This document shows, one piece after another, positions 44,426 to 59,159 of a stretch of DNA of 64,000 nt. This stretch comes from Yuukianura sp. NJ FZ-2021 (lineage: Eukaryota). Positions within the stretch are counted from its first letter, which is position 1. Each line of letters opens with the position of its first letter. The notes below the pieces were generated by a model that saw nothing but the letters and a program-made list of their open reading frames with translations, did not search any database and was not told the DNA's origin. A program made the translations under genes and the position numbers. Where the stretch lies: NCBI GenBank assembly GCA_046563655.1, contig CM102288.1, positions 1,364,001 through 1,428,000 on the forward strand, in the 5' to 3' direction.

Positions 44426-47400
44426 TCAACTGTAGTTCCTTTCCTTCTGTCTCTTGTGTCGATCAGATGATGCCGAATAGGAGTCCCTGGAGTGGTAGTA
44501 ATCTTTGTATGATCCCCCTCCAGGAGATCTCCTTCGACTCGCATAATCCCTGCTATCAACTCTATCTTTCTTGGATGAGCGACGCTCACGAGAGCGCGAA
44601 CGAGATCTAGAAGGTGACCGAGAGTCAGAATACTTGGATTTCTTACGTTTTTTGTGCTTTCGTCGATTTGGACTTCGCTGACCATCACGACTTCGGTCAC
44701 GATCATAATAGCTGCTGCTACTCCTTTTGTCGAATATTATTGGCGAAGGAGATCTTCTCACTCTTTTTGGTCTGCAAACAAAAAGTTTACTTTATTAGTT
44801 CAGTTTCTTAATTATAGTTTAGTTTTTACTATTTAGTTCATGTATAAACTAAAACTTACGCTGGTGAAAGTTCTTGGTCGTTCTTCTCCTTGTGACTTTT
44901 CTTAGTAACTTCGCCATTCACTCCGTCGCTTTGTCTCTTCCGGCTGGTCTCATTCTTTTCGCTTATAACAACTACATCGGCAGAAGTGACTTCCTGGACA
45001 CGAGCTGGAGAGGCTGGCCTAGATTCTGGACTTTGATTGGCAGACGATGAGGCTATGTCTTCCTTCTGTCCACTCAACAGGAATGATTTGCCTTTTTCCC
45101 TCAGCTCTTGGTAGGCTTTTGCAAGCACGTCGACCTTCTTTTCCAGCTCATCGTAGTTGATCTACAAACGTTATTCTATTATTAGTTTAATTAAGAAACA
45201 TTAAACATGAAAAGCAAATGGTTTATGTAAATAATCGGACTTACAGCTGGACGATCGTAGAGTGCAATAATATGCGAAGAAATCTCGGAGACTTCTTCTT
45301 CTGTCACGTCAAAGGCCAAAAACCACAATGGACTGGAAGGGAGTGGAATTTTAAGAAGCCTCGAGCTGAGAAAGACGCACGCACATGCGATTGCTTCGGG
45401 TTTGAAGCGTACGAAGACATTCGTTCGGAGTGCATCGTTCATGTAATTCCAAGACATCTGAACAAAGTTCTTGTCTTGATCGTATCCAAGAAGTTGCAAA
45501 TAGATGACGATGATCTGAAACAGAAACAATTTTACTTAACTACTAGAATTTAAAAGCTGGAAAGTTTTCATGAATTAATTCTCCTTGTTTTCATGATTGT
45601 AAGCTTGCCTTGTGCGGATGCTTGACGTGGACACAGAACCCCAGCTCCTTGAGAACTCTTCGTTCGGCCAGCATGACATCGTTCTTGAGTCTTAAAGCAT
45701 GTCTAAGTTCAAAGGACACATTTTTTTGATCATACAGTTCTCAGGTTTAGTGAGCCCTAGGAATTAGCTCTTTTGCCCGCGAAGTTTATACAACACATGT
45801 CTTCAAAATTGCAAATTTTCAGATTTTTTGAATCAGTTTTACAAAAATGACGAGAGCCGAAAGACAATCTTTCGCAAATCGTGTTGTAACATTTTATAAA
45901 AATGTTGCAAATCGGGTCAAATCGGTCACGGTAAAACATTTTTCAAGTGAGGATGTTCAACGCAAAACCATTTACCCTATCATAGACCGATACAATACAA
46001 GTGGTGAAAGTGTCTACAAGCAAAATAACACCCGAAAACCAACTGTCATGACCGACAAGGTCATTCAAAAGGTGAAAGCTGCTTTCACCAAACATCCAAC
46101 GACGAGTGTGAGGAAAGTCGCTGCTCAGTTGAAGCTGAAACCGTCAACTGTGTCGTACATTAAAATCAAAAAGCTCGGTATGACCGCCAGAACCCGCAAG
46201 GTCACCTCCAGAATGATCAATGACCAAGAACAACGAGCAAAAACTGGGTGCCTCCGACTCTACCGAAAATTGAGGGAGAAAGTTTTGGTGATTGACGATG
46301 AATCTTCTGTACTTTTGGACCCAAATAAGCGCCCCGGGAGAAAGTTTAGACCATAAACAAGTTGAACTTCAGTACAAGTTCATCGGAAAATCCAAATTTG
46401 CAAAATAAAGGGATGATTTGCCAAGCAATCGATTCCAAGGGCAAATCTTCGGAACAGTTTCTTTGCGAAGGCAGGATGCATCAGCACGTGTATTTGCAAC
46501 TTTTGCAGGAAAAACTCATCCCATTCATCAAAAAACATCATAATTTACAAGATGTACTGTTTTGGCCCGACCTAGCTTCGTGCCAATACGCAAAATCTGT
46601 GACTAAGTACTTGGGATCCGAAAATGTCAACTTTCTCCTGGAAGATCGGAACCCCCATAACGTCCCGCAGGCCAGAGGAATTGAGAAGTTTTGGATGTTA
46701 GGAAAGAAAAAGTAGTCTGCTCGATAGCCTCCAGCAATAAACGCCCGGGGATTTGTGCGAATTTGGTGCAATATGGCGGCGGAAGTGGAGAAAGTGCATG
46801 GGGAGAAAGTCATGGCCCCTGCCTTCAACTTTCTCCATGAAATCGGTCACAAGGGGTACCAACGCGCTCTGTGTCGTCTAGCGAACCGTAAAAAATATTG
46901 AAGTGTGATGCCTGACCCAATTTGCAATTGTTGTGCGATAAAATATACAAAAAACAAAATGTGTCCTTTGAACTTAGACATACTTTACGTAGGTCGGATC
47001 AAGGATGAGCGGTTGTATGAGCCTGGAATCAAATAAAGCTAATAATCAAAAGCTGTATTCTTAACTAAACAGTGCTTCATCAACATTTGTAAAACTTTGC
47101 GTTTCCAGTAAATTGTACACATCGGTTAGAAAGTAGTCAATTTCCTCCTTAGCATTTGAAACAAAGGACAACCTCATCAATTTCCTTTCCAATCAATTTG
47201 TGCTTAAGTTGGTTTGACAAAATACACTGTTCTTTTAGCAAAACGGCGAAGCTGGAAATTCTTTCTGGATTCCCTGGAACACAAAAATGCTAATCGGTTT
47301 GATGCCCCCGGGATTGGTGAAGCAGGAATGGCCGTACTACAGCTGGCATACACTTATATAACAGGGTAACATCTCTCCACGCAGCGAAATTACAACTTCT

Positions 47401-48911
47401 TTGTAACTGAAAGTTTGTGACAGCGGACAAAATGTTCTCAGTACATTTAGCTGTGACGCTGACAAAATACTTGCTTCGTTTGCAATGTATGGGAATAGTT
47501 TCGCCTAAACCCACCAAAGACTAAACAATCCGCGCCGCGCAGACGTTTTTTTTTTGTCGCTTTGACCAAGAAATCTTCAGTTGAATAACAGTCGTAGAAG
47601 ACGCAACCCCCACTAATTCACGCATCCATTCAGAAATCCAGAAGGAAAGATGTTTCCAACGACGCCGTTCTTGCTATCAAACCATTGACTTTGACATCGT
47701 ACGAGTGGAAAAGGCCCCACTCAAGAAACTACAACGTCAGCACCAAACATAAGACTTCAAATTGATAGAAAGAGAGAAAGACGAGTCTGACCTTGATTGG
47801 GCGATCGATAGTTCCGTTTCCGCAATGTCAGGGGTAACAAGATGGAGTTGTGAGTTGAAAACTCAGCAACGTTACTCTGACCTGCTTCTTCCCAAAAATT
47901 AACTAAACTTTGATTAGTAAGTGAGGACTAAGGAGTGGAAATGGAGAAATTAACTACTCATTACGTTTGTGTACAATTACCGTCCAGTTCATATATCTCC
48001 ACATCAAGATCAATCGTGCACAGGCAATTTAGTTCCTTTGTGCAACGGTAATCTCCTAGAATGAACATTAGTTTCTGTTATATCATGAAACGCAAAGTTT
48101 AAATGAACATTGTCTTCCATTTCAAAGTGGAAATTGTACTGAACAGTAGAAAATAACGACGAATTACAATGTGGTAAGTGTGTCCACTTATCAAATCCAC
48201 TTTGAGATGGAAAACAAGTTCATCAAGTAATGATTCATTTGTGTGTGACTTACTTTCCAGCGCGAATTTGCCGAATGTGGTGAAAGACATTGATAACGTC
48301 GCGGATTCGTCGGGGTGCTTCTTCAATCTTCGAAGCGAGATAAATACAAGCCATTGCAGTTACTTCCATCGGCTGTCGTACAAAAGACTCTGCAACAAAA
48401 ACATTAACAAAAAGGTAGAGGCGACATTAAGTTCAGTGTCTACTTGCACTTGTATTTCAAATTATCGGAACACGGAAACTTTAGCTTACTTGAGTAGTAA
48501 AAACGCTGGAAGAGGACCTGCCCAGTAGCCATCGCCGTCTGAAACATAAGGAACAGATACACCATATTAGTACTTCGGGACTTTCTCTATTTCTAGTAAC
48601 CACACCAAAGATAAACAAATTAAAAACTGTATTCAACTTACCTGTGGAAGTTTTAGAAGAATTCCCGAAGTTTGGATAAGCTCGCAACCACCTACCCTGA
48701 GAAACGTTTCGGTCTCTTCATCTAATCCATCAATGGCAGATGGACTAGGATGGAGCTTATCCGGTGGAATGAGGACGTTGTCCAATGTAATGACGATTGG
48801 TCCATAACTCCGTTTGCTAGTAATCGGAGCGGGAGCAGAGGTGCCACCGTTGGAAGTACCCCCAGCAGTTACACTCGAAGTTACCAATGACCCGTCTGTT
48901 GCGGCAGCCAT
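44426..48911 (-). CDS. CCNL1: Cyclin L (CCNL1/2-like; cyclin boxes plus RS domain); one exon interrupted by a DD37E transposon
   Basis: Exons 48911-48642, 48538-48490, 48389-48254, 47022-~46984 [transposon] ~45692-45609, 45514-45245, ~45162-44880, ~44771-44426. Motifs [109 protein letters not shown]. No stops or frameshifts apart from the insertion. Confidence 0.93.
45695..46985 (+). mobile_element. IS630-Tc1-mariner DNA transposon, DD37E type, 1291 bp, decayed
   Basis: 30-bp TIRs (45695-45724 AAGCATGTCTAAGTTCAAAGGACACATTTT; 46956-46985, 1 mismatch), TA duplication at 45693-45694 and 46986-46987, internal transposase remnant. Confidence 0.95.
45847..46901 (+). pseudogene. DD37E transposase pseudogene
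   Basis: HTH region ([12 protein letters not shown]), catalytic [14 protein letters not shown] and [10 protein letters not shown] with exactly 37 residues between the second D and E. Frameshift near 46340-46360 and in-frame TAG stops at 46713 and 46725. Confidence 0.9.
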
Positions 48912-49422
48912 GGTTCCGCTTCCACTAGTTCTTGAGTCCACGGCCGACCGAGCAGTATCTGTACATTAAAAAAAGGGAGTTTCAAACCTGGTATTCTACT
49001 TTATACTACTTTTACAATACTAACTTGAATGGATGCTTACCCTCGTCGAGACTCGAGATTCAAACAGATGATCAATATGTGGACCGTCTTCGTCACTACC
49101 AAAGCAAGGCCCGTATCTTCAGCAACCGATACAAAACGTAAACGTAAATTAGGTGAAATACGAAATGTTACCGGAAGTATGACTTGAGTGGTCGCTACAC
49201 CTTCCCGAAGAGCGACAGCAGGGAAAGAGAGATTCACTGCGTCAATTGACACGCAGAAACGAACGAACAACAGATGCAGAGTGGATATGGCGACACCACA
49301 ATACAGATGATATGAATGAACGTCCAATTTGTTACAAGTACAAGTAAGTAAAGCGTATCTTGAAACGTACCGTATATATGATGGTTAGTAAGTAAACCTT
49401 GTGGATTCCGAGAACTCCGATG

Positions 49423-49735: not shown

Positions 49736-51736
49736 TTATGGAACGACAATGGTATCGTCAAAGACAGTTTCCACTTCAATCATTCCCTCAACCTCGAGGT
49801 CATCTTGCTCAATCACTTGCGTATCGGGTAGAATTTCTTCATCGTCAAGCGTTTGCTCTACTGGAGCAAGCGTAGCGGCCTCCGTTTTTGGAGATGATGG
49901 TGTTGATTCCTCCACTGATTTGTTCATAATCTTCTTCGGAGATGATTTTTCGTCTTTTTTAGTAGACTTGACTGGTCGCGCTGCAAGTTTAGGCGGTGCT
50001 GACTGTTGTTTATTAGCCGCTAGTTTATAGTAGTTTGGAGATTTCTTGCACAATTTCTTCGAATGACGATTTCTGTACGTTTTTGTCGTAAATGTCTTGC
50101 CACAATCAAAGGGACACGAATAAATCTTCACCCGTTTTCCGCCGTCGTCCATTTTCTCCAGTTCCTCTTCTGGAACGTTACCTCCTATGCTTTTCAAAGC
50201 TACGTCAAGTTGTTCGTCGTCGTCACGCGGTCGTTTGAGGCAAATTCGATGATGCTGAAGGAGACTTCTGGAACGGGCAGTAGTTGACCCACAGCCATAC
50301 TTGCAAGCAAAAATAATCTTCTTGCCTTTGTTGCCATGATGTGATCTGTTATGGTCCCACAGCGTTCTCTGGTGTTTGAAGCTCTTATTCGGACAGATCT
50401 TGCAAGCGTACTTCCTTTCTACAGTGTCGTGGACATCTTTGACATGTTGACGAAGAGCTATCCTGCCTTTGAACTTGAGGTCACATTTAGAACAGGCAAA
50501 GTCTCTCACCGGAGCGTGGCGGGGTAAGTGATTTTTCAGAAGATACTCAAAGAAAAACTCCTTGTCGCAGTGTGGACAGGGCCAAATCTTCTCCTTTCCG
50601 TTCGCAATTTTGTGGCTCAACAGTTCATGTGTCCTCAAACCTTGACGGGATGTCAGCCCTGTTTACAAACCAATCTGATTAATCCGAAAAAAAAATCCTG
50701 AAAAATTGTTCTGGAAACATACCCGCGCCGCACAATTGACACAGGAAGGGCTTGCTAACGTTGAATGTTTCTGAATATTCAATTTCTTCTTCGATCCAGT
50801 CATCTGCGTTGTTTTCCGCAAGGTCGTCCACGGAACAAGAATCTTTATTTAATTATTCAATTAGTGTAAATCATATAGAAATGCAACAAACACGAAAACA
50901 AATGTTGAAAGTTAGAGGCTTACAACTGTTTAGCTCCAATTTGTTATCTGCCGGAGCCGCAGTTAATGTTGGTAGTCCACGCTGGATTTCAACTAACACT
51001 GGATCATCATGAACGTCTTGCACGACCTGGTAATCGTTCGGATCCAGAACTCGTATCATTGGATCGTCAATTAACGTTTGGTCTTGATTCTGTAGCAGAG
51101 GATTTCCGAGTTTCACATGTTGCGTAATTGGGCGATTGAGAATCTCCGTACCAATTTGATTCTTCTTCCCTTTAGGCTTTCTTGTTAACAGATTTGGAAC
51201 CAGTTTCCCCTTGGCAGTTGGACTCCCGACAAGATTATGTGATGTAGCATAAGAAATGAATTTGTCCAACGTTTTTGTAGTCAAAGTATCCATGAAAGAG
51301 TTAGAATGAGCCAAGGAATCGAATACTTTGATGGCTCCATATAATTTGGCAATGGCCACTCCGCAAATGCTTCCACAAACACGGAACTGAGCCGTAGAAG
51401 TGAAGTATTCTTCCATTGCATGTTCCGAGAATCCAAACAGTCGCCATTCAAAGATCTCCTTGATGGCTTCAGAGATAAGGACATTCTTCGTAACTAGCGT
51501 CCCATTTTCGTAGAATTCATAATAAAATTGTCTTGTGGGTAGGCAGCTCTTCGTATATTTCCGGTAACAGTTTGAACATCTCGAATTGTCCACACTTCTT
51601 CCGATCCCTGAAGTGTCATTATTTTGCTTGTCTGAATCTGATGCCTTCACAAACAATGAAAACCAATTAACCATGATCTCATAAACATAAAACATGCAAA
51701 TGGGCATTGTAAGTAACCGTAACTCTAACTTACCAT
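49736..51736 (-). CDS. Zinc-finger protein with N-terminal ZAD-like C4 motif and ~6 C2H2/C2HC fingers
   Basis: Likely ATG-only first coding exon (ATG|GTAAGT at 51736-51734), then exons ~51644-50924 (CSNC...CGSIC), ~50842-50723 and ~50658-49736 (CQLC..HELLSH, CPHC..HLPRH, CSKC..HVKDVH, CKIC..HNRSHH, CKYGC..HHRIC, CPFDC..HSKKLC). Start is less certain. Confidence 0.8.
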
Positions 51737-52619
51737 TTTCACTGCTTATACAGTAGTGAGAATACAGAGATGTCCAGGTGATACGTGACACCAAAAACGG
51801 AATTAACCAGCAGAACGTCAGAACTTTCCATCCAGAACGTCAGCTTCCCTGGGGTTGCTGAATGATTAGTCTAACTTTTAAGTAATTTATCTAACAATTA
51901 AATTCTAAATGTAAACAAACAAAGAAACTTAATTGACTTACAAAACAGATGATCGGATCTCATTGAGAGGGCACGAGATAAAGAGAAGACGACGAGTGAC
52001 GAGGAGGGGCGGGAGGTGGTGAACGGTAAAAAGATAAGAGAATTTGAAATTAGCGCCACAAAAAGTAAACAACTTTGAACCATGAAAGTGGAATTTTATC
52101 GTTCATTCATTTGGGAAAATTACGACAAGATAACGTTTGCGACCCTGGCCCATTTATCCTTATTAATCCCGTTAATGCGTTTTCATATTAAATTAGGTTA
52201 ATATTAAGTTGAGTTCTCTGCTAATGAAGGATAAAAGTGTGATATGACAGGAGCTAAACCGTAGGCACAACATGTGATCTTGTAGCGCCAACCGGCTTAT
52301 CCAGCCAAGTAGGTGGTCCTTTAATTAGAATTAAATGAGATAAAGCAATGAGACTACTGCGCGTATATCCGACCTTGGACAAACTTAATCCAACTTGGTG
52401 ATACGTGACCTCTTAATCTCACTCAATTATCACATAATAGTTCAATTTAGACAGGCCATTCTCTTATTTAGAAGTGTCAGTTCAAGCTTTCCTTATTCCG
52501 ATAATCATTTCAGTTAATTAAGTTATAACTCACTAACCGTCGCTTCCAATCCTCGGACTCCTTGTTGGTATACAAAACAACTGTACTTCTGTCGTTAAAG
52601 TATTCACTCCGGCCCCATC

Positions 52620-55017: not shown

Positions 55018-55679
55018 TGTTCACTCTTTTTTTGAACACTCAAGTCAAGGTAAACACTGCTAGAAACACCGAAACGTCGTCGCAAACTAACCTTTGACCT
55101 TCTCGTTGTCGTTGTCCCGTAGCACTTAAATTCTAATCAGCTGATTGATGAATGAATTCAATTAATTAAAAATCAGACTGACGAGGACGAGAGGACGACT
55201 GACTGACTGCTGTGCAACTAACAAAAGAAAGACTTTTCAATGAAAAGTTTTCATTTTAAATTTTTATTTTCGATTTCCCAAATTTTTAAGAATTTGAACT
55301 TCCCGCGAATTAAATTGTCCGAATTTTTTATGTTGAACTTTTTGTGTTGAGCGGGAACATTTAAAAATGTAAACAATAACAAATAAAGGACACTTCTAAG
55401 AAAAGAATTTACACAATTAGGAATTTGACCTCTTGACCTCTTACTTTCGCATAACCGTGCACCGTCACATTCTGTACTTTTCCATACCTTGTCAGTTGGT
55501 AGAACGGGAGTTAAACTTCAGATAAGTACGTAAACCAACAATCGGTGATCTAATAATATCTAAACTTAGTTCAAATTTTATCTTTTGTCCATCCTTGCAG
55601 GAATTTCCAGTGGTGATCAACCCAATGCTGAAATCGTGAACACATTGCTGATTATATTCTCCAAATCCTGCTGACGAAG

Positions 55680-56504
55680 ATGCATCTTCGAATTCAGACT
55701 CAACAACTTCTTAGAACATGGTCCAGGACTTGTTACGGCACTACTGCTACCACACTGGTTCCAAATTCCAGGATTTTCACCAAATGCGGCAGCACTTCCT
55801 TTGACAAGTCTGACGTCAACATGAGTACACTGGCAATGCGACTCATCATGTCAGATTCAAAGACATCCAGGCCTTCAACTTTAGTCACTTGCTGCTGGAA
55901 CTGCAAAAGCCAAGTAAAAACTCCAATTAGCGAGTTCCCCGGTTCATGTCACTGTTGCGGCTGTCTACAAAGATACTCGAAGGATCAAGTGCCTGATTAC
56001 TTTACGCTTCTGGGTCAAGAACGACAAGACTTCAATGTCAACTTGGCTTCACTGTCCATCAACATGAAAAACCTGCAGCGTCAACTCCATCCAGACTTAT
56101 TTGGTGGGAAACCCAAGCAGGAGCAGGAAGTCAGTCAAGAACTCTCCTCGCTAGTCAATACAGCAATCGTTACCCTCCAGAATCCAATCCAAAGAGCCAT
56201 CTACCTTCTATCTCTTCGTGGCGTTGACCTTGATCTGGAGAAGCAGCAGACACTGGACCCAGAATTCTTGTCTGAAATGATGGAACTCAATGAAGATCTT
56301 GAGAGTCTGTCAACAGCAGATCAATGGAGGAATTTCCGGAAGAAGAACAAAGAAGTGCTGGATAATCTTGAAAAAGAGTTGGGAGAAGCTTTTGAAAAGG
56401 ATGATTTGCATGGTGCTCAACGAATTCTGTCTAGAATGAAGTACTACGAAAACATGGGCCTCAAACTAAAAGAGATACAGAGCAAGTTTAACGTCGTTGA
56501 CTAA
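55680..56504 (+). CDS. HSCB: Mitochondrial Fe-S cluster co-chaperone HscB/Hsc20 (single coding exon; 5' UTR intron ~55526-55600)
   Basis: Presequence-like N-terminus, CWNC...CHCC tetracysteine motif, J domain with HPD (LQRQLHPD), LQNPIQRAIYLL, DPEFLSEMMELNE, RMKYY. Confidence 0.95.
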   Translation: MHLRIQTQQLLRTWSRTCYGTTATTLVPNSRIFTKCGSTSFDKSDVNMSTLAMRLIMSDSKTSRPSTLVTCCWNCKSQVKTPISEFPGSCHCCGCLQRYSKDQVPDYFTLLGQERQDFNVNLASLSINMKNLQRQLHPDLFGGKPKQEQEVSQELSSLVNTAIVTLQNPIQRAIYLLSLRGVDLDLEKQQTLDPEFLSEMMELNEDLESLSTADQWRNFRKKNKEVLDNLEKELGEAFEKDDLHGAQRILSRMKYYENMGLKLKEIQSKFNVVD

Positions 56505-56746: not shown

Positions 56747-59159
56747 TCATGCCACGTGACTCAACCAATTGACGATGCCTTTGACATCAGCTTCCTCACC
56801 AGTGGTTGTTCCTTCAGCAAATTCGACCTAGTATGTGCCAAAACGTTAATTAATCAGATTACAATTACTGTAATTACAAGATGCTTTGTAAGGAATTTTT
56901 AAGTTTAGTAGTTTTTACAACTTACCTTTATGGGCAAAAGTTGATCAAATTCAAAATCACGGTCGGATTTTCCAAGAACCTTGGTTTGGGAACTGGCATT
57001 TCCACCGATAGTTTTCAAACTGGCGGACTTGGTAAGACGAAGAGTGGTTCTAAAAAGTAATTGAAGAATCAATTATTACAAACTGGACAACAAAGAAACT
57101 TTCATATTTTCTTTTGAATTCCATACATTTCACGTTCCAACTGAAGTCGAAGTACTTTAGGAGCTTTGGCAGTGGGTAGATCTTGCTTGTTAGCAAAAAT
57201 AAGTACGTTCGGCTTGACGGAATTGACAATCGGATCAGTAAGAACCTCGTACAATACTTCTGCGGCATCTCGAATAGCCTTGTTTCCTCCAGCAGCGTCA
57301 ATGACACAAATGATTCCTCTCACTCCAACTTTATTTTCATCCCAAAACTTCATCCGAACTTTCTCGTGACCCGGGAGATCTTTGAGCAGAAGTGGTGCTA
57401 CAATCTTGTCTGGTACTTCGTACTCTGTTACGTTCGGAGCAGTTGATGTCACAGTTTCCATGTCTTTTCCAAATCCAAGACGAAGGTAGATTGCTGTCTT
57501 GCCACTTTCAGATGGACCAACAATCAAAATGGAACGTCCTTTCTTCTTGTTACGAATGTAGAAGAACACTGAAAAGAAAAGATAAAGTTTCATTTTTTAG
57601 CAGCCATTTTTTAACATTTTCAGCTAAAGTAAAACATTTTCAAAAAAAAGAAGAAATGTTTCATGTTCATAACATTACATAAGACGCTAAACGCCATGCC
57701 CTCTTTTGAGAGTGCATAGAACCAAGTTCCATTTCGTTCGCATTACGTTCTCAGCCCTATAAAAGGCTTGGACGTCCTGGTCCTCTGTGCCATTCCGATT
57801 TGAGACACAGAAGGAGCAACATCAACTTCAACCCAGCTGCACATCAAGCGCTCAAACATTCAAAGAACTAAAGATCCAGTACAAATTCAGCGATTTTCAA
57901 CAACTACCACTGTCGATCATCGAATCATCCAAGTCACCGCGTCACGACAACTGCTGCAGCGATTATGATTACCCACGATCAGTCACCTGAATTGGAACCA
58001 TTCCATTTTACACAAAACGTTGTCGAAACGTCGGAAGACTCAGATGACGAAGCCAACGAAAACAACGACGAAATCGGAATGGCCGAAGATATGGACATGG
58101 AAAACGATGAATATGAAGACGCTTCAGACTTAAGCGATGAATTTTGGCCGGATGACCATGACATAATGGAAAACATTGAAAACGTAGGTCTTCATTTCCA
58201 TTCGCCACCAAGCAATGTTTTCCAGCTATCGCTGTACTACGAACTAGTTCCGACTGTTGCCAACCAACACTCTGGGCTGCTCAAAATCAGCGTAGGAACA
58301 ACCAATGTCGCTCAGCCTACGATTCCACGCCAACCTCAAACAGCCGGAGTCCTAACCGGAAGAAATCCAGCGATGTTCCATGCCGTAAGTGCTAACAGAG
58401 CACGGGAAGAAGCTGTTGCTGCGACTGGATCACGAGCAAGACTTGATATGATCGGAGTCATGGGGTCAACTGGTCCATTGAAAACGACGATTGGTAGCTT
58501 GGCCAACTTCAACACCAGTATCTGGTCCATCGTCAGTCAGCATGATCAGCGTCAACGGCAAGCTTTGAAACTGACTGGACACTTGGTACGAGCCGAAAAT
58601 GAAGCAGTCCCAGTCTATCCGAATGGCTCAAGTTTGAATCATGTCCAAGAAGTGTTGCTCCAGAAAATCGTCATCACTGGCCGTTTTGTCCAGAGTTTAC
58701 TCCTAGCGGGATTTGCATCAGCTGAAACAGCGATTGAGTTTCAAGATTTGATTGGACGCTGCATTATGACGCTCGTATGGGAATGTGTCCTGGATTCGTC
58801 GGAATCAACGGCCACGGCGCTAAGAATCTTTGAAGAATTCGTCCAAGTCAGAATCTTGAACAACTTGCGACGTGAAGATACTACAACTACGTCAAGGTTT
58901 GAGGTAAATTTGTAAATGAGTTTTGTGAAAGTAGCTCATCGCTTATCCCAGTTCCGATTCCGATCATACATAAATCATTCAGACATTTAAAATTATAATG
59001 AATTTTGAGAATTTTTGAAATGAACTTACTAATTGTCAAAAAAACGATTATGACCGAGAATAGAACTCCCACGAGCACAGGATTTCCTATTTGTCCAGCC
59101 GTAGGTCCACTGGATTTGCTACCATCAGCAGTATCCATCTTGCGTTTTGCGTCCGCCAT
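56747..59159 (-). CDS. SRPRB: Signal recognition particle receptor subunit beta (4 exons)
   Basis: Exons 59159-59030, 57568-57127, 57049-56926, ~56827-56747. N-terminal TM segment, G1 GPSESGKT, G3 DLPGH, G4 NKQD, LEREITTLRLTKSA, DFEFDQL. Confidence 0.93.
57758..57764 (+). promoter_or_regulatory. TATA box of the nested ORF
   Basis: cTATAAAAgg about 200 nt upstream of ATG 57965, with an initiator-like CCATTC about 30 nt downstream. Confidence 0.55.
57965..58915 (+). CDS. Uncharacterised intronless 316-aa protein with acidic N-terminus, nested antisense in SRPRB intron 1
   Basis: 951-nt ATG-initiated ORF with coding-like GC content inside an otherwise AT-rich intron; upstream TATA box; no recognised domain. 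Confidence 0.7.
   Translation: MITHDQSPELEPFHFTQNVVETSEDSDDEANENNDEIGMAEDMDMENDEYEDASDLSDEFWPDDHDIMENIENVGLHFHSPPSNVFQLSLYYELVPTVANQHSGLLKISVGTTNVAQPTIPRQPQTAGVLTGRNPAMFHAVSANRAREEAVAATGSRARLDMIGVMGSTGPLKTTIGSLANFNTSIWSIVSQHDQRQRQALKLTGHLVRAENEAVPVYPNGSSLNHVQEVLLQKIVITGRFVQSLLLAGFASAETAIEFQDLIGRCIMTLVWECVLDSSESTATALRIFEEFVQVRILNNLRREDTTTTSRFEVNL

Follow-up and report, generated by a model that had tools for sequence, protein, structure and literature searches.

A Tc1/mariner-superfamily transposon of 1291 bp interrupts a coding exon of a cyclin L gene in the 64-kb window analysed here (64,000 nucleotides, positions 1,364,001 to 1,428,000 of contig CM102288.1 of Yuukianura sp. NJ FZ-2021; all coordinates below are those of the window). 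An initial annotation of this DNA had proposed that the element has been neutralised as a new spliceosomal intron. That proposal was found to be unsupported: DNA from the same sample, and likewise from a second organism, contains a precise empty site, and the insertion is therefore not fixed. The site is an insertion polymorphism and not yet an intron position, and what the assembly holds is probably a recent insertion allele, still segregating or heterozygous, of a coding-defective DD37E-type copy.

The empty site was found in sequencing runs. Five runs matching the window were found, none of them recorded as RNA, and the assembled contigs of four of them (X1, X3, X4 and X5) were compared with positions 44900-47900. 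These contigs continue through the introns of the gene (e.g., 45346-45669 and 47548-47900), which identifies the runs as DNA. In three of the four, a joint connects 45691 to 46985, with three ambiguous letters (TTA) and no letters in between; the 1293 nt that it skips are exactly the element plus one TA. The depth of this joint was 50.8 in X1 and 190.3 in X3, with neighbouring single-copy contigs at 75-95 and 214-246, respectively, and 6.5 in X5, a run from a second organism and a second study in which such neighbours reached 3.3-5.7. X1 and X3 come from the same sample as the best-matching runs for the window, and thus the empty allele coexists with the filled allele that was assembled. A search for the empty site had been named as a check in the initial annotation; its outcome is a precise empty site both in the same sample (X1 and X3) and in the second organism (X5). 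Cyclin L relatives, the second organism and part of the same sample are all without an insertion at this position.

The letters at the joint match the empty site (Y-V-R-L). The predicted spliced mRNA would instead connect 45690 with 46984 and read Y-V-K-L. On account of these letters, and of the coverage of introns by the runs, spliced cDNA was ruled out as the source of the joint. Somatic excision was judged an unlikely source, the joint being exact and its depth half or more of that of the flanks; excision of Tc1/mariner elements usually leaves footprints.

Several points weigh against the reading of a recent, unfixed allele. X4 yielded no empty-site contigs, a missing contig not being evidence of absence; allele shares are poorly gauged by contig depth; the filled allele rests on the assembly itself; and the sample in question (S1) could be one individual or a pool. 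Full rescue of the allele at the RNA level could also be possible, its reduced function, as set out below, being deduced from the letters. The initial annotation had allowed that the insertion might be a rare or heterozygous null allele, and half of this is borne out, in that it appears to be heterozygous or segregating.

Runs ascribed to one sample were also seen to differ from one another at several intron and exon sites within 45263-45410. At 45376-45410, X1 showed the other letter alone, and X3 and X4 the window's letter alone. This would reflect either heterozygosity or pooling of the sample, or the retention of different branches by the contig builder.

The host gene was identified by tblastn alignments of five cyclin L proteins, by its open joined frame and by Pfam. 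When its eight coding pieces are joined without the element and one TA, they form a single open frame. It counts 497 codons from the first Met, its identity to P0003 is 69% over 501 aa and to P0001 74.5% over 271 aa, and its translation ends in an Arg/Ser-rich (RS-rich) tail. Across the insertion site the joined peptide is ILDPTYVRLKNDV, and P0003 reads ILDPSYVRLKNDV uninterrupted there in the tblastn alignment. Among the minus-strand pieces of open reading frame, Pfam Cyclin_C was matched with 28.7 bits, above the cut-off of 22, and Cyclin_N below its cut-off. A protein search with the next cyclin L exon returned 145 candidates, 45 of them at E<=0.001, and every protein with a name among them is a cyclin L1 or L2. 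Of these, Folsomia candida cyclin-L1 (62%) ranks highest; P0001 (72%) and P0003 (68%) are closer, and nothing near-identical to this cyclin L was found in the public protein sets, where the best match stands at 72%. The species is an arthropod that probably stands close to the springtails. The best solved-structure matches of P0003 are cyclin-L1 (6.4e-106) and cyclin-L2 (1.8e-102), as against 2.9e-28 for cyclin K. Judged by these homologies, the host gene is cyclin L, with two predicted cyclin folds and an RS-rich tail, and the assignment of the interrupted sequence to a conserved coding exon of this gene is upheld by homology, by the joined frame and by the structure matches of P0003.

The interrupted exon, coding exon 4, is 121 nt long in the empty allele. 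Of the native introns, intron 3 measures 1231 nt (47023-48253) and the other five 83-103 nt. The intron after the interrupted exon (45515-45608, minus strand) is of the GC-AG type, with the donor AAG|GCAAGC and the acceptor TTTCAG. A repeat check for an older element inside intron 3 gave nothing convincing. The repeats in this intron are weak; they include a perfect inverted pair of 14 nt with a separation of 981 nt, and another pair of 37 nt at 70%. The target TA of the empty allele falls inside a donor-like motif in the middle of the exon, a GTAAGA-type hexamer that follows TAC (46986-46991 together with 45690-45692).

The observation of a transposon inside a coding exon of cyclin L was confirmed. 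A repeat search detected two inverted arms at 45693-45727 and 46953-46987, 35 nt each including the TA and 94% complementary, so that the terminal inverted repeats (TIRs) proper are 33 nt long; a 26-nt core of the arms occurs exactly twice in the window, as compared to zero occurrences expected from 100 shuffles. Over the first 30 nt of the TIRs the two ends differ at a single letter, position 4 of the element, which on the cyclin L strand reads T upstream and C downstream and is the second base of the GT proposed as a splice donor. The G+C content of the element is 42%, and its transposase is antisense to cyclin L. Upon re-reading, the TIRs and the TA at both ends bore out the coordinates and letters given in the initial annotation for a TA insertion that splits the exon, as well as its count of 29 identical letters in 30 with the mismatch at the donor dinucleotide. 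The features are collected in Table 1.

Table 1. Position of the inserted element, its parts and the coding pieces of the cyclin L gene in the 64-kb window.
Feature	Coordinates	Strand	Basis or remark
Cyclin L coding span	44426-48965	-	tblastn of five cyclin L proteins; open joined frame; Pfam
Cyclin L coding pieces	48965-48642, 48538-48490, 48389-48254, 47022-46986 + 45692-45609, 45514-45245, 45161-44860, 44771-44426	-	
Cyclin L coding exon 4, 5' part to TA (37 nt)	46986-47022	-	
Cyclin L coding exon 4, 3' part (84 nt)	45609-45692	-	
Tc1/mariner-superfamily element (1291 bp)	45695-46985	+ (transposase sense)	inverted ends; transposase homology; contig breakpoints
Left TA of target-site duplication	45693-45694		window letters; empty-site joint fits a single TA in the empty allele
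Right TA of target-site duplication	46986-46987		window letters; contig breakpoints
Left terminal inverted repeat	45695-45727	+	holds two candidate acceptors on the cyclin L strand
Right terminal inverted repeat	46953-46985	-	holds candidate donor AAA|GTATGT, GT at 46983-46982
Transposase N-terminal part, Met to first catalytic D region (LVIDDES)	45847-46347	+	HTH_32; homology; tblastn
Transposase C-terminal part, in another frame, with second D (FWPD), E (GIEKFW) and two TAG stops	46407-46856	+	tblastn

The history of the allele may be pictured as follows. A defective DD37E-type copy would have been mobilised in trans and have landed at a TA in exon 4 of cyclin L, antisense to the gene, and the assembler would have happened to retain the insertion-bearing haplotype. 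Translation that reads through from the exon into the element gives YVKYV and then a stop, so that in unprocessed transcripts a stop would come three codons into the element, with degradation or truncation as the expected outcome. The frame would be shifted if exon 4, with its 121 nt, were skipped. From this stop and this frameshift it would follow that the allele is one of lost or reduced function, which would persist owing to the intact allele beside it. The element may be lost from some transcripts, at or near its inverted ends; such loss is not needed to explain the existence of the allele.

The transposase of this copy is broken. A single frameshift lies between 46347 and 46407, and two in-frame TAG stops follow at 46713-46715 and 46725-46727; the decay described in the initial annotation (a frameshift plus two stops) could thus be located by tblastn and by reading of the frames. 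By a hand count, 37 residues separate the second D (FWPD) from the E (GIEKFW), in the element as in P0050, the catalytic D and E having been assigned by the position of the motifs and not by structure. With this spacing, and with a TA at both ends, the classification as a Tc1/mariner element of the DD37E type with TA duplication stands. Pfam HTH_32 was matched by the N-terminal part with an E value of 9.5e-07 and 29.7 bits, which is below the curated 33.7. Neither of the two C-terminal pieces was matched by Pfam, and the catalytic part thus went unrecognised in the 45695-46985 copy; among four full-length relatives of the transposase, DDE_3 was found in one, and weakly (E 0.0056, below the cut-off). 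Full-length relatives are of about 349 aa, and homology to them is clear; P0068, a spider mite protein of this group, is labelled a Tc1-like transposase DDE domain-containing protein by its source.

The 169 residues of the N-terminal part have 374 relatives at E<=0.001, 116 at <=1e-10 and five at <=1e-30. Identity among the five best matches is 43-48%; the best in the public set is at 48%, and none is near-identical. Residues 3-168 of P0050 align by tblastn to 45847-46347 with 43% identity, and this segment and 46407-46856 were the sole alignments in the window obtained with the transposase relatives, among the four of eight relatives listed. A 25-nt TIR pattern had no matches in a metagenome collection, in which the species is unlikely to be represented, since the public protein sets gave no near-identical cyclin L or transposase.

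Copies of the element other than the one in the window were evident in the runs. The read depth over the element was several-fold above that of the flanks in all four runs, the contigs of other copies diverge from the window exactly at 45693 and 46987, and the high-depth contigs of the element are about 99% like the window copy (two differing letters in 247 nt and two in 232 nt). Taken together, these three observations point to a young, multi-copy family. A form lacking 46086-46447, a deletion of 362 nt with the joint 46085 to 46448, was found in all four runs and hence in both organisms, and as its depth equals or exceeds that of the deleted stretch and of the full-length middle part, most copies of the family are probably a shortened, non-autonomous derivative. 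Two further, near-identical joints were seen in X4 only. At position 46715 every other contig, among those listed, has a different letter from the window, and the first transposase stop is therefore private to the window copy.

The initial annotation had taken an intact cyclin L gene together with a decayed transposase as implying neutralisation of the element. This argument does not hold for a young, unfixed allele, which had no time to decay; an intact cyclin L is for the same reason uninformative on selection. A decayed transposase between near-perfect ends is likewise uninformative on splicing, because a copy that is moved in trans carries old coding defects with it, and such a combination is normal for copies mobilised in this way.

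Among known elements, the closest in kind are the DD37E families Mosquito (MS), TRT and L18, which have the same DD37E spacing (PMC10379824, PMC5630946). MS elements are given as about 1.3 kb long, with about 340 aa, TIRs of 19-51 bp and a TA (PMC10379824). The element described here, with its 1.29 kb, short inverted ends, TA duplication and arthropod host, and with relatives whose transposases have about 349 aa, resembles them in size, TIR length, TA and host group, in a comparison made by description and not by tree. It differs from these families in that its catalytic domain is unseen by Pfam and in that the nearest relatives found are just 43-48% identical in the N-terminal part.

A tentative alternative, proposed by analogy, is that the element is removed from the transcript by pairing of its ends, the process named SOS splicing: the inverted ends would pair in the pre-mRNA, AKAP17A, CAAP1 and RTCB would excise the element at varied sites in or near the ends, and with a fraction of the products in frame, function would be rescued in part. 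The removal of exonic Tc1, Tc3 and Tc4 insertions from mRNA in C. elegans was reportedly the subject of a classical report by Rushforth and Anderson in 1996. In the sense RNA of cyclin L the two ends can form, in silico, a continuous duplex of 32 bp at -48.5 kcal/mol, in which the TIR mismatch becomes a G.U pair, and the element is exonic, as are the substrates of SOS splicing. According to PMC12779559, C. elegans removes exonic Tc1, Tc3 and Tc4 from 90-100% of the mRNAs that carry them. The excision sites vary, lie within the inverted ends or close to them, and rarely match GU-AG; the process requires these ends but not the transposase, needs AKAP17A, CAAP1 and RTCB, and works in human cells as well. 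The cyclin L insertion resembles these cases (PMC12779559) in that a TIR element with a TA duplication sits in a coding exon, introduces a premature stop and has ends that can pair. It differs from C. elegans Tc1 in its arthropod host and in its shorter ends (33 nt here versus 54 nt in Tc1), and the cyclin L case is known from DNA alone. Two further points speak against it: in PMC12779559, rescue is reported at poorly conserved positions only, whereas the cyclin L site is inside the conserved cyclin core, and arthropods are unaddressed there, the words 'Drosophila' and 'insect' having no occurrences.

Less likely still is that the spliceosome removes the element, from the GT at 46983 to an AG at 45703 or 45691, and that a transposase-bearing introner has been caught while still polymorphic. 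The candidate donor AAA|GTATGT would set the intron start at 46983. Of the two candidate acceptors, CTTAG| would end the intron at 45703 and TTTAAG|, whose AG is host sequence, would end it at 45691. The letters of these sites in the inverted ends, and both peptides that had been predicted from them, were confirmed by a phase check: each acceptor is in frame, the first giving YVKHALRLKN and the second YVKLKN, so that the product would be a cyclin L with four extra residues or with an R-to-K change. The candidate donor is a plausible one; one native cyclin L donor also has AAA before its GT, and the TTAG acceptor has 10 pyrimidines among its 20 upstream letters, inside the native range of 8-15. 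The gene, moreover, already carries an intron of 1231 nt. The GT...TTAG unit is wholly internal to the element and would always leave 12 nt (2 + 8 from the element, plus the second TA), so that insertion at any TA would preserve the frame; this footprint is free of stops in two of its three insertion phases. The column of the R that would be replaced is variable among 39 homologs (N in 31, R, Q and T in two each, H and A in one each), the alignment having 46 rows, of which six are without letters at the insertion site.

Other features of the same sites argue against their use. All six native donors have A, A and G at +3 to +5 (GTAAGT in four, GTAAGC and GCAAGC in one each), whereas the candidate has T at +4; the native acceptors are CAG in five cases and TAG in one, whereas the second candidate reads AAG. 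Splicing would leave an exon of 37 nt flanked by one intron of 1231 nt and another of about 1290 nt, whereas the gene's other five introns measure 83-103 nt; such a layout would be hard for exon or intron definition, and inefficient splicing is to be expected from it. Neither an insertion between the Y and K columns nor a K at the R column occurs in any of the 39 homologs. An in-frame pair of donor and acceptor would arise by chance in about one case in three, and a GT near the end of a TIR is not rare; the coincidence of splice sites, though real, is statistically unremarkable. With an empty allele coexisting, no rescue is needed, and in C. elegans the removal of exonic Tc1, Tc3 and Tc4 rarely uses GU-AG (PMC12779559). 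Removal of the element from RNA by either route, end pairing or the spliceosome, is possible as judged from the letters.

A stronger form of this proposal would hold that the ends of the family, with a GT two bases from one tip and a TTAG eight bases from the opposite tip, make the element an animal introner caught at birth, transposase-bearing, polymorphic and already spliced. This appears improbable. Introners, as described in PMC9860276 and PMC12130899, have features in common with the cyclin L insertion: a coding exon holds a DNA transposon, candidate splice sites lie in the ends of the transposon or in the target duplication, and the footprint is a multiple of three. They are defined by many spliced copies in many genes, whereas the element described here has one copy in the window and is unfixed. 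Most introners are non-autonomous, as the initial annotation had also stated, and autonomous as well as non-autonomous TIR elements generate introns in several species (PMC12130899). Full-length, transposase-bearing TIR introners having been reported in that source, a transposase-bearing introner, treated as unusual in the initial annotation, would not be a new category.

It is extremely improbable that the assembler misplaced a transposon copy into the exon. In favour of such an error, the empty site is well covered and the filled allele rests on the assembly itself; against it, the TA duplication, the complete inverted ends and the clean host sequence on both sides are hallmarks of transposition, and the window copy has letters absent from the other copies listed, e.g., at 46715.

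The surroundings of the cyclin L gene are an ordinary gene-dense eukaryotic region. The open reading frames at 49736-50662 (-), 55632-56504 (+) and 57102-57596 (-) matched Pfam C2H2 zinc fingers, the HSCB C-terminal domain and the SRP receptor beta subunit, respectively. Four others, at 37707-38777 (+), 57872-58915 (+), 50871-51839 (-) and 11270-12145 (+), encode 291-356 aa and gave no Pfam matches at E<=0.001.

The locus is best regarded as a polymorphic insertion of an ordinary kind that may serve as a natural test case; on present evidence it does not demonstrate the birth of an intron. The reference assembly has captured a polymorphic insertion in an essential-looking gene for a splicing regulator, and this is useful for annotators to know, as gene predictors will break or mis-model cyclin L at this position. 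If carriers of the insertion make an in-frame mRNA, the locus would provide a natural test case in an arthropod, with the empty allele as a built-in control. Such a test case, if true, could separate the use of sites in the TIRs by the spliceosome, which would be the start of an introner, from removal of the element by the pairing of its ends.

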